The position numbers and the translations under genes are program-made. 49,640 nucleotides of DNA, taken from the IMG/VR virus record IMGVR_UViG_2718218452_000011. One strand, written 5' to 3'. Numbering within the stretch: the first letter of the stretch is position 1; the number at the start of each line of letters is the position of its first letter. Source of the stretch: a virus (taxonomy: Duplodnaviria > Heunggongvirae > Uroviricota > Caudoviricetes). Shown here one piece after another: positions 11,748 to 42,731 of the stretch. The notes below the pieces were generated by a model. That model saw only the letters and a list, made by a program, of their open reading frames with translations, ran no database searches and had not been told where the DNA came from.

Positions 11748-12533
11748 ATGGAAACGTTGATTGATACGTTAAAAGCGATGCAAAAGGTGACGTGCACTGA
11801 GCTTGCTACCAGTTTGGGCATTGCACCGGCTGAGGCGATTAAAATGTTGCGGGAGTACGAAGAGCAGGGAGAAGTTGTATCGGTTAATGGTTACTGGTCT
11901 GTTTCAGAACGACAAAGTGGCGTGAAAGAAAAAACAGTGCCGGTGTGTAAAGCGGAAAGAAAATCCCGCATGGTGGTCAGCAGAAAAGACCGTGAGCCAC
12001 TGAATCGCTGCGACATCCTGTCCACACTTGCTCATGGTGGGGCAATGACCACCGCTGAGATTGCAATTGCTGTGGGGCGTGCTGATTGCGTCAGGTCGCT
12101 GGTTTCTGCGATGGAAAAGCTTTGCCGCGATGGCATGGCGATTAAGCTGGGACAGGGGAAGGGGTGTAAGTGGATGCTGGTAAAAGAAACCGGGGAAAAT
12201 TTACCAGCAGAGCCGAAATTTGTATCGGTAGCGAAAACACCTGGTAAAGCCTTTTCTCAGCCAGCCGGTGTTGCGTTACCAGTACAGGAGGTTGCAACAC
12301 AGGAAGATATTAAAACAGAAACTGTGGCGGACATTGTGCAGTCGCTGCCATCGTTTACCGAAACGCGTGCGAATGACCTGATTTTACCATCGCTGCACAT
12401 GGCAAACCGCGAACTGCGTCGGGCGAAAAATCATGTCCGGAAGTGGGAGCGAGTTTGCGCGGCGCTGCGGGAGCTTAACAAGCACCGGGATATTGTACGG
12501 CAGATGAATTGTTCCAGAGAGGATGTGAAGTGA
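11748..12533 (+). CDS. Hypothetical protein (261 aa) with N-terminal winged-helix-like region
   Basis: Track ORF with GGGAGA RBS. Confidence 0.5.
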   Translation: METLIDTLKAMQKVTCTELATSLGIAPAEAIKMLREYEEQGEVVSVNGYWSVSERQSGVKEKTVPVCKAERKSRMVVSRKDREPLNRCDILSTLAHGGAMTTAEIAIAVGRADCVRSLVSAMEKLCRDGMAIKLGQGKGCKWMLVKETGENLPAEPKFVSVAKTPGKAFSQPAGVALPVQEVATQEDIKTETVADIVQSLPSFTETRANDLILPSLHMANRELRRAKNHVRKWERVCAALRELNKHRDIVRQMNCSREDVK

Positions 12534-12883
12534 GATGGCGTGGCTGGGTGCGGGCTGAAATCCTTATTCTGCGGCAGTGCGCGGGAACAATGAAGGTAAA
12601 AAGCATCGGCAGTCTGATTGGTCGTAGTGAGGCGGCTGTCAGGACGAAAGCCCGGGAGATGGGAATAAGTCTGATTCTGCGTGGTGATTTTCACCAGTCA
12701 GCAAAATATCTTCAGAGCGATATTGAGCTGGCGCGACAACTGCATCAGCGTGGCGTGTCCAGGAGAGAAATCGCCATAAAATTTGGAATGCCGTTGCGCA
12801 CAGTGAATAACACGTTTATTTCGACAGGAGAGTTCAGGAGTGAGGGTGAGAGTTTATATTGCCGGCCCAATGACGGGATATAA
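12530..12883 (+). CDS. Hypothetical small protein with HTH-like segment
   Basis: Track ORF 12509..12883 (TTG); GTG at 12530 overlaps the upstream stop (GTGA) and has a GAGGA RBS. Confidence 0.4.
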   Translation: MRWRGWVRAEILILRQCAGTMKVKSIGSLIGRSEAAVRTKAREMGISLILRGDFHQSAKYLQSDIELARQLHQRGVSRREIAIKFGMPLRTVNNTFISTGEFRSEGESLYCRPNDGI

Positions 12884-15072: not shown

Positions 15073-15249
15073 AAGGAAACAAACAGAAACAACAATTGCC
15101 GTTATCTGTTGCCACCAATGACAAGTAAACGTATCTCAGGCGAGCGCATTGCGCCGTTCTGACGCGGATACATTAGCCTGGGCAGAAGGTTCTGGCAATA
15201 AAAAATAGCGTTTTCTTATCGGTGTCGGTAAGATTGTTGCGGGTGCTTG

Positions 15250-15409
15250 AGGCTGTCTGCCTCGGGCATGCCACTGTAAGGCAGACAGAGAAAAGCCCCA
15301 GTTAACATTACGCGTCCGGCAAGACGCTTAACATTAATCTGAGGCCCAATCTATGCTACACAAACGTAGGTTAGCCTCTTACGTGCCGAAAGGCAAGGAG
15401 AAGCAGGCT
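15250..15409 (+). promoter_or_regulatory. hok mRNA leader with stem-loop; expected location of Sok-like antisense RNA / mok-type control
   Basis: 9-bp inverted repeat CTGTCTGCC...GGCAGACAG (about 15254..15288); in-frame upstream extension of hok; AAGGAG RBS before hok ATG. Confidence 0.35.
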
Positions 15410-15565
15410 ATGAAGCAGCAAAAGGCGATGTTAATCGCCCTGATCGTCATCTGTTTAACCGTCATAGTGACGGCACTGGTAACGAGGAAAGACCTCTGCG
15501 AGGTACGAATCCGAACCGGGCAGACGGAGGTCGCTGTCTTCGTAGACTACGAATCTAGAGAGTAA
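15410..15565 (+). CDS. hok: Hok/Gef-family type I toxin (51 aa)
   Basis: MKQQKAMLIALIVICLTVIVTALVTRKDLCEVRIRTGQTEVAVF.. has the Hok/Gef signature (TM helix then RKDLCEV..R.G..EVAAF). Confidence 0.8.
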   Translation: MKQQKAMLIALIVICLTVIVTALVTRKDLCEVRIRTGQTEVAVFVDYESRE

Positions 15566-16620: not shown

Positions 16621-16910
16621 TGGTGGATTTACGTAAAGCGGCGCGGGGCCAGATGTGCCAGGTCAGAATCCCTGGCTACTGCAATCACAATCCCGAAACT
16701 TCTGTGCTGGCGCATTACAGGTTGGCGGGAACGTGCGGAATGGCGATAAAGCCACACGATATGCAGGCAGCGATTGCCTGTAGCTCGTGCCACGATTTAA
16801 TCGACGGGCGGGTAAAAACAAGCGATTACACCAAAGAAGAATTACGCCTGATGCATGCAGAAGGTGTTTTTCGCACGCAAGAAATCTGGAGAAAGGAAGG
16901 TTATTTATGA
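16620..16910 (+). CDS. YbcO-like putative nuclease (DUF1364-type, 96 aa)
   Basis: Cys/His-rich (..CQVRIPGYCNHNPETSVLAHYRLAG..CSSCHDLIDG..) resembling DLP12 YbcO as recalled; nin-region location. Confidence 0.55.
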   Translation: MVDLRKAARGQMCQVRIPGYCNHNPETSVLAHYRLAGTCGMAIKPHDMQAAIACSSCHDLIDGRVKTSDYTKEELRLMHAEGVFRTQEIWRKEGYL

Positions 16911-17449
16911 TTTACCCAACAAATACAGGCAAAAGCGGGGAACACCTTCGTCTCACCACGCTGGAAAGTGTCTGGATTCAGGGAAAACTGCGCATGTGGG
17001 GGCGCTGGTCGTATATTGGCGGCGGTAAGACGGGGAATATGTTCAACCAGTTGTTGGCCTCTAAAAAGCTGACAAAAACGGCAATTAACGAGGCGCTCCG
17101 GAGGATGAAAAAAGCAGGTCTGAACAAGTCTGAACTTGAGGCTTTTTTGCGGGATATGATTAACGGTAAGCAAAAGAGCTGGCTGGCGCATTGTACTGAT
17201 GCAGAGGCGTTATGTATTGATCGGGTCATAAGTGAGGTGCTGGCAGAGCATCCAGGATTGATTAGCGTCCTTCGTCAACGGTATGAGGGGCGGGGGATGA
17301 CCAAACGCAAAATGGCTGAATTGCTAAATGATGCACACCCAGAGTGGTGTTTTAGCACATGCGAAAAGCGAATTGCTAATTGGTTGGCCGTTGCTGAGTA
17401 TGCGCTATACATTCCTATGCGAGAATCATTCGCTCAAAAAACGGCTTGA
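16907..17449 (+). CDS. Putative late-gene antiterminator Q-like protein (180 aa)
   Basis: ATGA overlap with upstream stop and AGGAAGG RBS; ..LRMWGRWSY.. motif reminiscent of Q-family proteins; last gene before a terminator and the late region. Confidence 0.5.
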   Translation: MIYPTNTGKSGEHLRLTTLESVWIQGKLRMWGRWSYIGGGKTGNMFNQLLASKKLTKTAINEALRRMKKAGLNKSELEAFLRDMINGKQKSWLAHCTDAEALCIDRVISEVLAEHPGLISVLRQRYEGRGMTKRKMAELLNDAHPEWCFSTCEKRIANWLAVAEYALYIPMRESFAQKTA

Positions 17450-17532
17450 TTTTTTACGCATAAACCGCTTCAATTTTGCTAAGCTTCGCAAAGCTGTATC
17501 GCGAGGTGAACCAAGCGCATGAACTTTGATAC

Positions 17533-17557
17533 AACCCGCCATTGAGCGGGTTTTTTA
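17533..17557 (+). terminator. Rho-independent terminator downstream of Q (tR'-like)
   Basis: CCCGC-CATTGA-GCGGG followed by TTTTTT. Confidence 0.55.
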
Positions 17558-17678
17558 TGTCCGAAAAACGGCAGAGAACATAAAACGTGCTGGTGGTTGC
17601 GAATACTGGTCTTTCGGCTTGTATTTTTGTAAATCGATATATACTTATCTTGTGACCAGTAATGTCAGGGCAATTGAT

Positions 17679-18420
17679 ATGAATGAAGCCTGTTCTGTTG
17701 TTTTTGTTCATTCCCCGTTTGTTGTGCTCTTTGAAGGAAAAGAGCTCTCTCTTGAAAGTGGTAGTGCACTTCTTGTCAGGGGGGGGGCTGGATCGTTATT
17801 GCCCTTTTCGGAATGTTTTCGGCGAATAAGTCTCAGTGAATCGACAATTAGCCGTTACCTGTTGTGTGGAGACGAAAAACAGGATGTAGTTTTAGTCCGG
17901 CAAATACCACGATATCTTTGCGTGAGTTTTCCGAAGGCAGAATTGATGGGCATCCTGATTGATTATCTTTGTGAGGAAAAGATTCATACGGACAATTTAG
18001 CGGAAATGCTTTCCTTTTCGTGTCTGGCGTTTTTCTCATCAGAGAAGATGTTTTCGTCGTTTCTGACCGCGTGTATTAGCAATATTAGTGACAGGCTTAG
18101 TGCATTGTTTCGTACGGACATTGCAGCAAACTGGACTCTGAGAGATGTGTCTTCGGTTATGTATCAGTGAAAGTTTGTTAAAAAAAAGACTGAAAGAAGA
18201 AGGCACCTGTTTCAGTGAGTTGTTGCTTACAGAGAGAATGAGAATGGCAGCAATGCTGTTGAATCAATCTCGTTGCGCCATCAACAGAATCGCTGCTCAG
18301 TGCGGCTATAATTTTACATCTTATTTTATCAGCGTATTCAGGAGTTATTTTGGTGTTACACCGGCAGGTTACAGGATGGCTGCATTCAATGAGATGAGTT
18401 TAAGTGTTACTCAAGAATAA
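17679..18420 (+). pseudogene. AppY/GadX-like AraC-family transcriptional regulator, interrupted by a frameshift near 18165
   Basis: Track ORFs 17526..18170 and 18145..18420 overlap in different frames; the second carries the AraC HTH signature (..AAQCGYNFTSYFISVFRSYFGVTPAGYR). The junction (..DVSSVMY / ISESLLKKRL) is contiguous with recalled AppY (..IYTSESLIKKRL). Confidence 0.6.
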
Positions 18421-18595
18421 TTGAATTTTGCACTCATTGAAAACAGGCTCGCTGCGGCGGGCCTTTTTCATATCCGCGCCGCGCCCGGCGCACATCACAT
18501 CAGATAACACCACACAAAAGGCATCTGCGGGTGCCTTTGACAGGGTGTTTTTACGGGCCGCTGGAGGCCCTTTTTTATTTGTGGGAGGAAAAAGC

Positions 18596-18988
18596 ATGTC
18601 TGAACCCTTATCCGGTTCCGGTACGGCTGTGGCGCTCGGCGGGGCGACGGTATTCGGGCTGTTTACCGGAACGGATTTCGGGATTGTGTTTGGTGCGTTC
18701 GCCGGGGCGTTATTTGTGGCAACGATGCCGCAGGCGCTTTCAGCCTGGCGTGTGGCGGCGCATTTTCTGGTGTCGTTCATTATCGGCGTGCTGGGCGCAG
18801 AGGTTCTGGCATCCTGGCTGGTAAAGCATACAGGGTTTGACGGTGCGCCTGTCGACGCACTGTGTGCAGTGCTGGTGTCAGTGGTGTCGGTGAAGATTCT
18901 CTCGTTCATCCACCAGCAGGATATTGCATCACTGGTGTCCGGCCTGTTCTCCCGTCTGCGGGGTGGAGGAGGCGGCAATGTTAAGTAA
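18596..18988 (+). CDS. Putative holin/antiholin-like membrane protein (130 aa)
   Basis: Internal ATG of track ORF 18428..18988; Gly/Ala-rich predicted TM helices; directly upstream of second membrane protein and endolysin. Confidence 0.4.
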   Translation: MSEPLSGSGTAVALGGATVFGLFTGTDFGIVFGAFAGALFVATMPQALSAWRVAAHFLVSFIIGVLGAEVLASWLVKHTGFDGAPVDALCAVLVSVVSVKILSFIHQQDIASLVSGLFSRLRGGGGGNVK

Positions 18989-19253
18989 CCTTCCCGGATT
19001 GCTGAATGTAGCGTTATGCACGGTTATCGTGCTGACGCTCTTTTTTTATCGTCGCCGTGATTCCAGACATAAACCGCTGATGTCATGGCTGGCGTGGCTG
19101 CTGATGCTGCTGTATGCCTTTGCGCCCCTCAGCTATCTGTGTGGTCGCCCGTTAGCAACGGGCTGGCTGGAAGTGTTTTTTAACCTGCTGTTCTGCGTGC
19201 TGGTGATACGCGCACGCGGGAACGTCACAAAAATCTTTCCATTGTTGAGGTGA
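18978..19253 (+). CDS. Putative holin (91 aa, 2-3 TM helices)
   Basis: Internal ATG of track ORF 18924..19253; small hydrophobic protein immediately before the endolysin gene. Confidence 0.45.
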   Translation: MLSNLPGLLNVALCTVIVLTLFFYRRRDSRHKPLMSWLAWLLMLLYAFAPLSYLCGRPLATGWLEVFFNLLFCVLVIRARGNVTKIFPLLR

Positions 19254-19255
19254 AT

Positions 19256-19633
19256 ATGTCGGGTAAATTCAGATTCAGCCGTCGCAGTGAAAAAAATCTG
19301 GAGGGCGTTAAACCACAGCTGGTTGCTGTCGTTCGCCGTGCGCTGGAGCTGACGGAGGTTGATTTCGGTATTACGGAAGGGCTGCGCACGAAAGAACGCC
19401 AGAAACAGCTGGTCGCGGAAGGGAAAAGCCAGACCATGAACAGCCGCCACCTGACCGGTGATGCGGTGGATGTTGTTGCCTGGGTTGGCAGCCAGGTGTC
19501 ATGGGACTGGCCTCTGTACGAGAAAATCGCGCAGGCATTTAAGAAGGCTGCCGCAGAGCTGGGAACTGCCATCGAATGGGGCGGGGACTGGAAAACACTG
19601 AAAGACGGGCCTCACTTTCAGTTGAAACGCTGA
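19256..19633 (+). CDS. Endolysin, peptidase M15 family (L-alanyl-D-glutamate peptidase type)
   Basis: ..GLRTKERQKQLVAEGKSQTMNSRHLTGDAVDVV..DGPHFQL matches M15 peptidase endolysin motifs as recalled; GAGG RBS; follows the holin-like genes. Confidence 0.7.
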   Translation: MSGKFRFSRRSEKNLEGVKPQLVAVVRRALELTEVDFGITEGLRTKERQKQLVAEGKSQTMNSRHLTGDAVDVVAWVGSQVSWDWPLYEKIAQAFKKAAAELGTAIEWGGDWKTLKDGPHFQLKR

Positions 19634-24768: not shown

Positions 24769-26208
24769 TTGATGGCAGAGATCGAGATTACTGGCGGCCT
24801 CGGTTCAGCACTGATGCATATTCTTGAGGCTGAAGAAATTCAGCCGGGAACCGACATTGGCTATGAATTGTGTAAGCAGCTGTGGCAATTCCATCCTCTG
24901 GGCGGAAAACTTGTCGAAAAACCCATACTGATGGCGATGTGTAAGCCGCGCCAGTATAACGTGGAGACAGACCCTGACGAGAGGGTTGTGAGGCGTTTTC
25001 AGGAGGTATGGGAACGCATGAAGGTCAACGAGAAGATTAAAAATCTGTTTTTTCTGTCTCGTTGCTACGGTGCTGCAGCGATCGGCGTGGGCACCGACAG
25101 CGTTCCATGTCGTGAACCGCTTCCGACGTTCGGACTGACAGAAGATGACGTGTATATCAACGCGTGGGACCCGTTGAACGCTTCCGGTTCGATGGTGACT
25201 GACCAGAACCCCAACAGCCCGTTTTTCCAGGAAGCCAATAAAAAACTGAAGATTGGTGGGAAAGACTGGCATCCGTCACGCACACTGAAAATCTTCAACG
25301 GCACACCGATTTATCTGGAGTTTCAGAGTTCATCGTTCGGATTCACCGGACGTAGTGTGTTTCAGCGCGTTCTTTATTCCCTGAAATCCTATATCAACAC
25401 GATGGAGGCGAATGATCTCGTCAGCCAGAAGGCGGGCGTACTGGTAGCTAAAGTTGTGCAGTACGGTTCGAAACTTGACGGGATCATGGCTGCCGCCACG
25501 GGACGAAAAAGGGAAAACGTCAAAGAGGCAAAAAATAAAGGTGTGCTTAGTATCGGGAAGGATGAGGACGTTACCTCGCTAAATCTACAAAACATCGATG
25601 GTGCGCTAAACGCTGCACGCGACAATATTATTTCCGATATTGCGTCAGGGAGTGACGTTCCGGCGATCCTCATCAAAGAGGAAGCCTTTTCGAATGGTTT
25701 CGGTGAGGGGACCGAAGATTCGAAAGCCATCAGCCAGTATATCGATGGTGTACGCCAGCAGATTGAACCCGTGATGGATTATTTCGAACGCCTGGTGCAG
25801 TACATCGCCTGGAACGAGGAATTTTATCAGTCGCTGAAAAATGATTACCCGGACATCATAACTGATGACTATAAAACCACGTTTTACCAGTGGCGACGTG
25901 AATTTACCGCGACATGGCAGGAGCTGGTGGAGGAGTCGCCGGACAAACGCCGGGAAAGCGACAGTAAAGTGATTCAACAGGCGATAGCACTTTTCTCTGC
26001 CGTGTCGCCACAGGTTGATCCTGAAAACCGTGCCGCCGTCACTGAATGGCTGGCAAGCCTTGTTAATGCCACGCAAACCTATGGCGAAGCTCCACTCATC
26101 ATTGATGTGGACGCGCTGGCGAATTATGAACCACCGAAGCAGGAGACGCCTGATGGCAATTTCCAGCCGGGCGGTGAGGAAGAAGAAACGGATCAGGACG
26201 CTATATGA
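24769..26208 (+). CDS. Portal protein (479 aa), putative
   Basis: Size and position immediately after the terminase large subunit; acidic C-terminus. Confidence 0.6.
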   Translation: MMAEIEITGGLGSALMHILEAEEIQPGTDIGYELCKQLWQFHPLGGKLVEKPILMAMCKPRQYNVETDPDERVVRRFQEVWERMKVNEKIKNLFFLSRCYGAAAIGVGTDSVPCREPLPTFGLTEDDVYINAWDPLNASGSMVTDQNPNSPFFQEANKKLKIGGKDWHPSRTLKIFNGTPIYLEFQSSSFGFTGRSVFQRVLYSLKSYINTMEANDLVSQKAGVLVAKVVQYGSKLDGIMAAATGRKRENVKEAKNKGVLSIGKDEDVTSLNLQNIDGALNAARDNIISDIASGSDVPAILIKEEAFSNGFGEGTEDSKAISQYIDGVRQQIEPVMDYFERLVQYIAWNEEFYQSLKNDYPDIITDDYKTTFYQWRREFTATWQELVEESPDKRRESDSKVIQQAIALFSAVSPQVDPENRAAVTEWLASLVNATQTYGEAPLIIDVDALANYEPPKQETPDGNFQPGGEEEETDQDAI

Positions 26209-41570: not shown

Positions 41571-42731
41571 ATGGAAAATTTTGCAAATAAGTTAAAAATA
41601 CACACAGAGCATGTTGCAAAAATGGGGGTGTTTTGTACAACTGAAGAAACGACAAAACAAGCACTCATTATGCCATTACTAGATATTCTTGGTTTTACTC
41701 CGTATGATCCAAGAAAAGTCAAAGCTGAGTATAGTGCTGACTTCCCCGGGGTTAAGGCTAATGAACGGGTTGATTACGCTTTATTTTGTCATGATGTTCC
41801 TGTGATGTTCATTGAGGCGAAATCGTTTTCAGAACAAATTGATAATCACTGCCCACAGCTATCAAGATATTTTAATTCAACACCGGAAGTTACTATATCA
41901 GCCATTACAAATGGTGTTGAATGGCGTTTTTTTACGGATTTGAAACAAAAAAACATAATGGATTCAACGCCGTTTTTAAAAATAAGAATGGATTCTCTAA
42001 CTCACTCCGATATTACACAATTATTTCGTTTTCGTTATGATAAATTCAAACCAGAGGCTTTACGGACACTGGCTGAAGAAAGTGTTTATTTGAATTCATT
42101 TACTAAAACAATCAGTTCTAGTCTTCGTGAAGTTGATCTGGAGTTTGTTCGATATGTTGCTAGTCGTTCAAATATTGAGAGACAACTTAATCAGAGATTT
42201 CTTGAGTTCGTGACTCCATTAGTTAAACAGGCCGTTGAGCGCGCTGTTAGCGCAATGGTGGTTTCCGGGCTATCTACACAACCGGTAGAGCAAACTAAAG
42301 AAAATGATGCAACGGATACACAAGTTAATAACGCCATTGTTGATGAAGAAAACCCCAACATAATAACCACAGCCAAAGAATTGGAGCTATTTGAAAGGGT
42401 AAAACAAATCATACAAACAGAAGATAATATAGAATATAAAGATACTGAGTCATATTTTGGTGTGCTATTGAATGGTAAAACTAATAGATGGCTGTTAAGA
42501 TTTTATGATAAAAAATCTTCATTTATAACTTTACCTATTTCGCTTAGTGAAGTTCAGTTGAATGAAATAAGACGAGCTCGACTTGATACGGATGGTAAAA
42601 GGATACATATAACTAATCCGGAAGATATACTTCGCATATCTGGTTTGATTCTGGATTCATACGAGTATGTTAAAAATGATGATAATTTCCGCCGAGGGTC
42701 CAGAGTGAGCAGTTTAGAAGAGGTTGAATAA
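41571..42731 (+). CDS. HsdR-N/Mrr-like PD-(D/E)XK nuclease-domain protein with uncharacterised 240-aa C-terminal domain; candidate defence gene
   Basis: GGAGGAG RBS 6 nt before ATG 41571; motifs ..ERVDYALF..(16)..VMFIEAKS..Q..Y...TNGVEWRFF fit the type I R-subunit N-terminal nuclease fold; AT-rich, own promoter-like sequence and terminator; inserted between baseplate W-like and J-like genes. Confidence 0.6.
   Translation: MENFANKLKIHTEHVAKMGVFCTTEETTKQALIMPLLDILGFTPYDPRKVKAEYSADFPGVKANERVDYALFCHDVPVMFIEAKSFSEQIDNHCPQLSRYFNSTPEVTISAITNGVEWRFFTDLKQKNIMDSTPFLKIRMDSLTHSDITQLFRFRYDKFKPEALRTLAEESVYLNSFTKTISSSLREVDLEFVRYVASRSNIERQLNQRFLEFVTPLVKQAVERAVSAMVVSGLSTQPVEQTKENDATDTQVNNAIVDEENPNIITTAKELELFERVKQIIQTEDNIEYKDTESYFGVLLNGKTNRWLLRFYDKKSSFITLPISLSEVQLNEIRRARLDTDGKRIHITNPEDILRISGLILDSYEYVKNDDNFRRGSRVSSLEEVE

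Follow-up and report, generated by a model that had tools for sequence, protein, structure and literature searches.

A frameshifted AraC-type regulator gene in the late cargo slot of a lambdoid prophage of Escherichia coli C7

The stretch of DNA analysed here, 49,640 nucleotides in length and called the window throughout (IMG/VR record IMGVR_UViG_2718218452_000011), is 100% identical to positions 3338088-3387727 of E. coli strain C7, from a cow (NZ_CP010240.1), and represents a lambdoid prophage whose collinear relatives are integrated beside ttcA, the Rac site. Between its Q-like late antiterminator gene and its lysis genes lies a gene for an AraC-type transcriptional regulator, which in C7 is broken by a 2-bp deletion into two overlapping open reading frames (ORFs). 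The locus belongs to a known class of prophage-encoded AraC regulators, as a so far uncharacterised member whose copy in C7 was inactivated recently; it occupies a known cargo position, and its state in C7 is one of ordinary decay. The full explanation, in which the gene is a moron inserted between Q and the lysis genes of a Rac-site lambdoid prophage and was inactivated in C7, is in our estimate reasonably likely to hold in all its parts.

The split gene and its lesion

In strain A17 the same 1 kb is present at 99.7% identity and contains one unbroken gene of 744 bp, encoding a protein of 247 aa (WP_001405091.1). The sole length difference within the gene lies at 18152..18157 on the plus strand, where one CG of a CGCG is missing: relatives read TCTTCGCGGTT and C7 reads TCTTCGGTT, and the alignment of the window (TCTT--CGGTT) with A17 places the missing CG at 18154-18155. 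Two overlapping ORFs result, both on the plus strand. The first, at 17679..18170, encodes 163 aa that align to residues 1-160 of the intact protein; it covers the regulatory domain, helix 1 of the DNA-binding domain (DBD) and most of helix 2, and then continues for four out-of-frame codons to end in ...TLRDVSSVMYQ and a stop. The second, at 18145..18420, encodes 91 aa reading MCLRLCISESLLKKRL... and holds DBD helices 3-7 behind a rewritten helix 2; it still matches the helix-turn-helix (HTH) families HTH_18 (E 2.3e-14) and HTH_AraC (E 1.6e-10) of Pfam, and it lacks DBD helix 1 and the entire N-terminal domain (helix positions are from the AlphaFold2 (AF2) model). RefSeq labels the two fragments separately, as 'hypothetical protein' and 'helix-turn-helix transcriptional regulator'. 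An earlier reading of the window, made from its letters alone and here called the sequence-only reading, had placed a frame break near 18165 with two overlapping ORFs and had offered a 2-bp deletion as one of two possible lesions. The two ORFs are indeed there, the A17 alignment identifies the lesion as the loss of one CG, and the N- and C-terminal ORFs both align to a single 247-aa AraC-family protein.

The position of the break within the protein is informative. According to the multiple alignment and the AF2 model, the frame changes at residues 160/161, which is the end of helix 2 in the first HTH and falls just before the invariant recognition-helix residues S164, S166, L167 and K169. Since the break lies in helix 2 of the first HTH, no C7 product would keep both domains, and since it precedes the recognition-helix residues, the 163-aa product would be without any DNA-contacting helix. 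Judged by sequence comparison, the locus is thus a frameshift pseudogene, in which an indel relative to intact orthologues breaks an essential domain, and the C7 regulator is most likely non-functional. A 61-bp probe spanning the junction matched 41 complete genomes, with C7 alone at an identity of at least 99%. For the remaining 40 the identity is between 95 and 99%, and 11 listed ones are each 96.8% identical over a 63-bp span, as for a 2-bp gap. A pattern allowing either allele found CGCG in all 12 metagenome contigs, each with the full 247 aa (246 in one). By these counts (one of 41 complete genomes, none of 12 metagenome contigs), the deletion is recent and private to C7.

It could be argued that the split gene is still active, either through a free N-terminal domain that interferes with the paralogues GadW, GadX and YdeO by heterodimerising with them, or through a 91-aa fragment acting as a minimal activator like MarA and SoxS. 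Both ORFs are open and both are annotated by RefSeq, the 91-aa ORF retains both recognition helices, and stand-alone AraC-type DBDs do exist in MarA and SoxS, which are both among the weak NCBIfam matches. However, the 91-aa ORF has to do without DBD helix 1 and with an altered helix 2, and its initiation at 18145 is doubtful, as read from the sequence: a GAGAG immediately 5' abuts the ATG at zero spacing, and the start lies inside the upstream ORF. Moreover, the split allele is private to one strain, with no sign of selection for the split form. We regard residual activity of the split gene as very improbable. Programmed frameshifting or phase variation at the lesion was also considered and rejected, given that the deletion is private to one genome and that (CG)2 is too short for a contingency repeat.

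There are two homopolymers inside the coding sequence, a G9 run at 17779-17787 and an A8 run at 18180-18187. The 81-bp stretch around the G9 run is 79 bp long in strain C41, 84 bp in strain C5 and 81 bp in all other genomes, and in strain C41 the N-terminal part, with its 2-bp-shorter G9 stretch, is unannotated. In some database proteins (P0009, P0010) the frame shifts immediately behind the KK for which the A8 run codes. Frameshifts, or else sequencing errors, may thus recur at both runs.

Real mutation or assembly error

The sequence-only reading had allowed for either a recent inactivation or a sequencing error. Both alternatives stand, and a real mutation is favoured because the deletion is private to C7, because its site is a short CG repeat and no homopolymer, and because the assembly has no excess of indels. 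Over ~29 kb, C7 matches A17 at an identity of 98.6% or more, and conserved sequence there contains this one small indel and no second, the rest being in locally divergent patches, and 50 kb of the C7 core genome contains one frameshifted coding sequence. The lesion, in a CG dinucleotide repeat without a homopolymer, fits replication slippage. We consider it likely that the 2-bp deletion is a real mutation of strain C7.

The rival explanation holds that living C7 cells have an unbroken gene and that the gap of 2 bp arose in assembling the genome. It draws on the identity of the allele, which otherwise matches intact alleles at 99.7%; on the confinement of the deletion to one complete genome and its absence from the 12 metagenome contigs; on the purifying selection acting on this AraC gene family; and on another small frameshift in the same prophage. 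The latter is a 1-bp deletion after 12811 (AATAAC-ACG, against AATAACTACG in strain F2_407_2_2), which alters the last ~10 residues of a small DNA-binding-protein gene (12590-12843) and is the second non-homopolymer frameshift of the C7 prophage. Consensus errors usually concentrate in homopolymers, whereas neither small deletion of the C7 prophage lies in one, and the figures for the ~29 kb of prophage DNA and the 50 kb of core genome speak against a general indel problem in the assembly. In addition, two contigs are on record with exactly these truncated products; one of them, the longer, measures 5,349,582 bp and so differs from the C7 RefSeq record of 5,310,035 bp. These records hint that there may be a second assembly with the same truncated allele. 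An assembly error is, in sum, rather unlikely. The preferred reading, a real mutation, also suits a prophage that is decaying in other respects, with an insertion sequence (IS) of the IS3 family in a head-region gene and the 1-bp frameshift just described.

What the intact protein is

The intact allele carries a C-terminal DBD with two HTH motifs, recognised by Pfam as HTH_18 (53.9 bits, cut-off 33.6) and HTH_AraC (41.2 bits, cut-off 26.6). Its matches in the PDB are led by the DBD of GadX (3mkl, E 1.7e-22) and by Rns (E 7e-18), followed by CsvR and ToxT. In the AF2 model the DBD is predicted confidently as seven helices, with a mean predicted local distance difference test (pLDDT) score of 73-94 in 10-residue blocks over residues 131-240, and it superposes on 3mkl with a root-mean-square deviation of 1.0-1.3 A and a template modelling (TM) score of 0.91-0.92.

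Over its full length the protein is 39% identical to ECs_0287 (over 234 aa), 37% to a PsrA-like protein of an Stx2k phage, 37% to YdeO, 36% to GadW and 30% to AppY; further BLASTP identities are 40% to GadX and to EnvY, over the DBD only, and 27% to YbcM. The full-length alignments with members of this subgroup span 229-242 aa at E values of 2e-35 to 8e-51, and the full-length comparators share an N-terminal start of the form M-x-x-x-C-S-V (C-S-I in one). In an alignment of 13 proteins, GadX and EnvY included, recognition-helix residues S164, S166, L167, K169, L172, E175, S215, Y216 and F217 are invariant, and the 22 invariant columns also include C5, W152, R187, G210 and Y211. The best NCBIfam model is YdeO, which matches residues 2-230 at 148.3 bits (equivalog cut-off 348); for the GadX model the score is 98.5 bits and the cut-off 500. 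On this sequence evidence the protein is not an equivalog of YdeO or GadX; it is a member of the GadW/YdeO/AppY/PatE/PsrA subgroup of the AraC/XylS family and an orthologue of none of them. The AT-rich AraC-family regulator gene of the sequence-only reading is therefore confirmed by the Pfam and PDB matches and by a G+C content of 41.9%. Its description as AppY-like proves loose: the two proteins belong to the same subgroup, whereas several other regulators are closer to it than AppY, at 30%.

Between the A17 allele and an allele 83% identical in protein, dN/dS is 0.30 in both domains, which argues that the family is maintained by selection. Of 5426 complete genomes, 73 carry the DNA of the gene, in every case on the chromosome, and many of the 73 are from cattle or farm sources; close alleles (76-99% identity) are confined to E. 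coli. A DNA search for the gene in sequenced phages gave no match, and a protein search of sequenced phages returned homologues of at most 40% identity.

Three homologues of 39-41% identity (P0013-P0015) were considered as PsrA or PsrB and set aside, as one of them, P0014, stands in a non-prophage context by an hdeA-like gene and the real psrA is in prophage Sp4 of strain Sakai. P0014 is a 242-aa protein encoded at 4001-4729 of L012 (a contig of GCA_964206615.1), with 39% identity to the protein described here and 43% to YdeO. Its gene lies near a ProQ-domain gene and ~1.1 kb from the hdeA-like gene, and it ties the subgroup to acid-stress loci outside phages.

The cargo slot and its mobility

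The Q-like gene, a terminator, the AraC-type gene, further terminators, the holin genes and the endolysin gene all follow one another on the plus strand. The sequence-only reading had assigned the regulator gene to the late-operon cargo position after Q, and this same-strand order bears the assignment out. At 41.9% G+C, the gene stands apart from the window as a whole (48.1%), from the Q gene (48.4%) and from the lysis genes (56.1%).

Comparison with other prophages shows that the slot is exchangeable. The F2_407_2_2 prophage, at the same ttcA site and with the same Q type and two holin genes, has tRNA-Thr and tRNA-Gly in the slot, and in ES1 an identical Q protein is followed by these tRNAs too, with another lysis cassette behind them. 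Of the ~1800 genomes with the Q module, only 33 have the present holin module close by. Conversely, the AraC gene is found behind an unrelated Q type (Pfam PF03589) as an 83% allele, as a 42% homologue and on two metagenome contigs, with a gap of ~200-230 nt after the PF03589 Q gene in each case. Among the 12 metagenome contigs, a Q gene lies upstream in seven (of two unrelated Q types) and a holin gene downstream in nine, and the order is the same wherever neighbours could be identified.

The ends of the exchanged segment can be placed rather closely. Between the window and the 83% allele, homology runs from the terminator hairpin (~17530) to ~18457. Homology with prophages without the gene ends at ~17555-17615 (17554 for ES1, 17558 for Sp10, 17614 for F2_407_2_2), and with AraC-less prophages it resumes at ~18497. 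These boundaries suggest that the mobile unit consists of terminator, leader, gene and terminator. In keeping with a moron, the locus exhibits replacement polymorphism between collinear prophages, a downstream terminator of its own and a distinct G+C content. In O157 prophages the site downstream of PR' is a moron insertion site (Tree et al., PMC4104026).

Late antiterminator, terminators and proposed expression

The Q-like late antiterminator gene, of the DUF1133 type and encoding 180 aa, lies directly upstream at 16907..17449 on the plus strand. The assignment comes from Pfam (DUF1133, E 1e-106; a weak match to Phage_antitermQ of 27.2 bits against a cut-off of 26), from PHROG (phrog_753, 'anti-termination protein Q-like', E 5.7e-79) and from a homologue in Sakai prophage Sp10 that is 85% identical in DNA and annotated as a phage antiterminator. 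A sequence search of the PDB with the Q-like protein gave Q of phage 21 as its best match, which is not significant (E 0.26).

Overlapping the end of the Q-like gene, a putative PR'-like late promoter was read by eye at 17446..17474 (plus strand), with a -35 TTGATT, a 17-nt spacer and a -10 TTCAAT, each hexamer matching the consensus at four of six positions. In Sakai Sp10, ES1 and F2_407_2_2, where the Q gene is of the same type, the stretch after it is likewise conserved. A consensus sigma-70 promoter scan of 17300-18700, which is blind to weak or activator-dependent promoters, found no site, and the putative PR' was not called either.

A tR'-like intrinsic terminator follows at 17533..17558 on the plus strand (AACCCGC-CATTGA-GCGGGTT, then T6), the hairpin proper being 17533-17552. 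This hairpin is kept with the Q module in Sakai Sp10 and ES1, and also with the AraC module behind a different Q type at the locus L015. The terminator scan of 17300-18700 yielded six terminator-like sites where 1.3 were expected. Both the Q-like gene and the tR'-like terminator (at 17533..17557) had been named in the sequence-only reading, and they are upheld by the DUF1133, phrog_753 and Phage_antitermQ matches and by the terminator scan and RNA folding, respectively. The leader of the AraC-type gene occupies 17559..17678 (plus strand) and is without a consensus sigma-70 promoter; leader and gene together are 87.6% identical to L015, where the upstream Q gene is unrelated. Directly after the gene, at 18445..18469 on the plus strand, the terminator scan and RNA folding reveal a strong intrinsic terminator, an 8-bp stem with six G-C pairs followed by TTTTT (fold z-score -3.4). 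The same methods detect two more hairpins before the holin gene, at 18517..18576 (plus strand), the second of them terminator-like; they sit in the stretch that travels with the holin module, with shared sequence from ~18497.

From these elements a mechanism can be proposed. The intact protein combines an N-terminal regulatory domain with a C-terminal DBD of two HTH motifs and would probably, by analogy with PatE, PsrA/PsrB and AppY, bind AT-rich host promoters such as gadE and hdeAB, thereby plugging the prophage into the acid-resistance network of its host. In the lysogen, the putative PR' would give a short RNA ending at tR'. Expression of the gene would be low at this stage, since it follows the tR'-like terminator and the scan found no strong promoter for it; any basal expression would have to come from a promoter in 17559-17678 that is weak or depends on an activator. 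Induction would raise expression, as polymerase modified by Q would then pass tR', transcribe the AraC gene and continue across the three hairpins behind it as far as the lysis genes. In C7, slippage would have removed one CG of the CGCG and shifted the frame in helix 2 of the first HTH, leaving a C-terminal ORF devoid of helix 1, of the dimerisation and regulatory domain and of a well-spaced ribosome-binding site, and the regulatory output would be lost.

The stretch 17446-17558, from the putative PR' to tR', is predicted to give an RNA of ~75-80 nt ending in a terminator, which recalls small RNAs (sRNAs) of the StxS type. An Rfam search of 17380-18700 at a permissive threshold gave nothing significant (best rsmX, E 0.12, and isrK, 13.5 bits, E 5.4). 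Identity of this RNA with HnrS, a 66-nt prophage sRNA of Sp9, Sp10 and Sp12, seems unlikely: HnrS is nearly confined to strains with the enterocyte-effacement locus (LEE), whereas the present Q/PR' module is found in ~1800 of 5426 genomes, and the predicted RNA is longer.

Several points weigh against the favoured explanation as a whole. The N-terminal domain is modelled by AF2 at low confidence (mean pLDDT 33-60 in 10-residue blocks over residues 1-130), too uncertain for a comparison with the fatty-acid pockets of ToxT and Rns or for any statement on a ligand pocket. The regulon and DNA-binding specificity of the lineage are suggested by analogy, with identities to characterised regulators of at most 39%. 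The Q assignment comes from family annotation and one borderline Pfam score. With neither an own promoter nor PR' in the consensus scan, the expression logic is deduced from position. Finally, a consensus error in the C7 assembly retains some probability.

A more far-reaching interpretation would take the intact 247-aa protein as a separate lineage of the Q slot, mostly in E. coli from cattle and farms, that is switched by Q and rewires host genes in a manner unlike PatE, the Psr proteins and AppY. If this were true, the lineage would rewire acid-resistance or colonisation genes at prophage induction, the free N-terminal domain of C7 could be a dominant-negative partner of GadW, GadX or YdeO, and the conserved RNA at ~17481-17558 could be an StxS-like regulatory sRNA. 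We consider this combination improbable and retain the interpretation as a moron inactivated by ordinary decay.

Other features of the prophage

The left part of the prophage carries, in RefSeq order, intR, xisR, ralR, recT, recE and kilR, followed in the RefSeq annotation by an immunity region of the ydaS/ydaT type and replication genes. A nin-like block precedes the Q slot, with a DUF1367 gene (a match to the PHROG family NinB/Orf), a gene for a YbcO-like nuclease and the DUF1133 gene. The downstream edge of the cargo slot is formed by the lysis cassette at 18596..19633 (plus strand), two holin genes and an M15 endolysin gene according to RefSeq annotation and PHROG holin and endolysin matches, after which come the terminase, head and tail genes, with a baseplate J/gp47 gene among the tail genes. 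RefSeq also annotates a minus-strand hypothetical protein of 65 aa (WP_000898679.1, 18400-18597) that runs across the hairpins separating the AraC gene from the holin gene and is probably a spurious ORF.

In the head region, an IS3-family element at 28043-29256 interrupts a DUF2213 gene (26967-28001 and 29309-29602) that is intact in strain A17, and the prophage is probably defective in C7. The element contains a programmed-frameshift pseudoknot recognised by Rfam as ALIL (120 bits). The terminase gene is followed by one with the annotation 'anti-CBASS protein Acb1 family' (24772-26208), and the baseplate cluster contains a gene annotated 'type I restriction endonuclease' (41571-42731); both are also present in A17. 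Two type I toxin-antitoxin loci are recognised by Rfam, RalR with the RalA sRNA at 1557-1735 (215 bits) and hok with sok at 15241-15565 (116 bits). The DUF1627 gene starts at 12045 in RefSeq (489 bp), while the full ORF of 786 bp is open from 11748 (11748-12533) and nearly identical to the F2_407_2_2 protein, which makes the short form an annotation artefact and not a truncation.

Comparison with known systems

Through AppY, PatE and PsrA/PsrB, the carriage of a prophage is known to be linked to the acid resistance, motility and type III secretion of E. coli, and the locus described here adds a further lineage, whose identity to the characterised regulators under comparison does not exceed 39%. 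A terminator-leader-gene module that is found behind unrelated Q genes is useful for catalogues of phage cargo and for work on how E. coli from cattle resists acid. As for the frameshift, it matters for annotation only, in that the C7 ORFs should be listed as one pseudogene and not as two genes, and it opens no new question.

Functionally, gadE and hdeAB are targets of activation by PatE, PsrA/PsrB and AppY, which by way of these genes influence acid resistance, type III secretion, biofilm formation and motility (PMC10877973, PMC10057817). The closest characterised relative by sequence is PatE (z0321 of EDL933), a prophage-encoded AraC-like activator of gadE, gadBC and hdeAB (PMC10877973). We infer from position and size that ECs_0287 of Sakai prophage Sp1 is PatE; taken as such, PatE is 39% identical to the protein described here and likewise 247 aa long. 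ECs_0287 is 99% identical to a gene of phage mEp332. Unlike the present gene in its Q-holin slot, ECs_0287 lies at the right end of Sp1, after the tail-fibre genes. AppY, from DLP12 of K-12, is also prophage-borne, belongs to the same AraC/XylS subgroup and can be aligned over its full length, and its direct targets of activation include gadE as well as other acid-stress genes (PMC10057817). AppY is nevertheless among the more distant relatives, at 30% identity, and not an orthologue; its gene sits at the far right end of DLP12, after tfaX and beyond the tail-fibre remnants, whereas the Q-S slot of DLP12 holds nmpC. The chromosomal regulators of glutamate-dependent acid resistance, YdeO and GadW, show full-length identities of 37% and 36%, and differ from the present gene in that the latter is prophage-borne and patchy in distribution (73 of 5426 genomes).

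A counterpart in position is PsrA (ECs_1087 of Sakai prophage Sp4; gene name from PMC13502914), which like PsrB is a prophage-encoded secretion regulator of E. coli O157:H7. It is a member of the same AraC/XylS subgroup with the same x-C-S-V start, 237 aa long in its extended ORF and 36% identical in the multiple alignment. PsrA and PsrB act on gadE and hdeA and so on type III secretion (PMC10877973). Like the gene described here, psrA lies downstream of an antiterminator gene (ECs_1084, at ~1.6 kb) and before the late and lysis genes, and upstream of it is a stretch related to tR' plus leader, with 76% identity over 87 nt. The two loci differ in detail: two other genes stand between Q and psrA in Sp4 and none between Q and the AraC-type gene here, and psrA directly precedes ileZ-argN-argO, near effector and pch loci, whereas here the holin genes follow directly. 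Similar arrangements recur in other phages. In phiSTEC1575-Stx2k, the antiterminator gene is followed by five small ORFs, a PsrA-like gene and then the tRNA-stx2 block. Lambda_ev245 and its relatives have an AraC-type gene immediately in front of the holin gene S, with Q and three further genes upstream of it. The same slot between Q and the holin genes is the one that holds stx in Stx phages.

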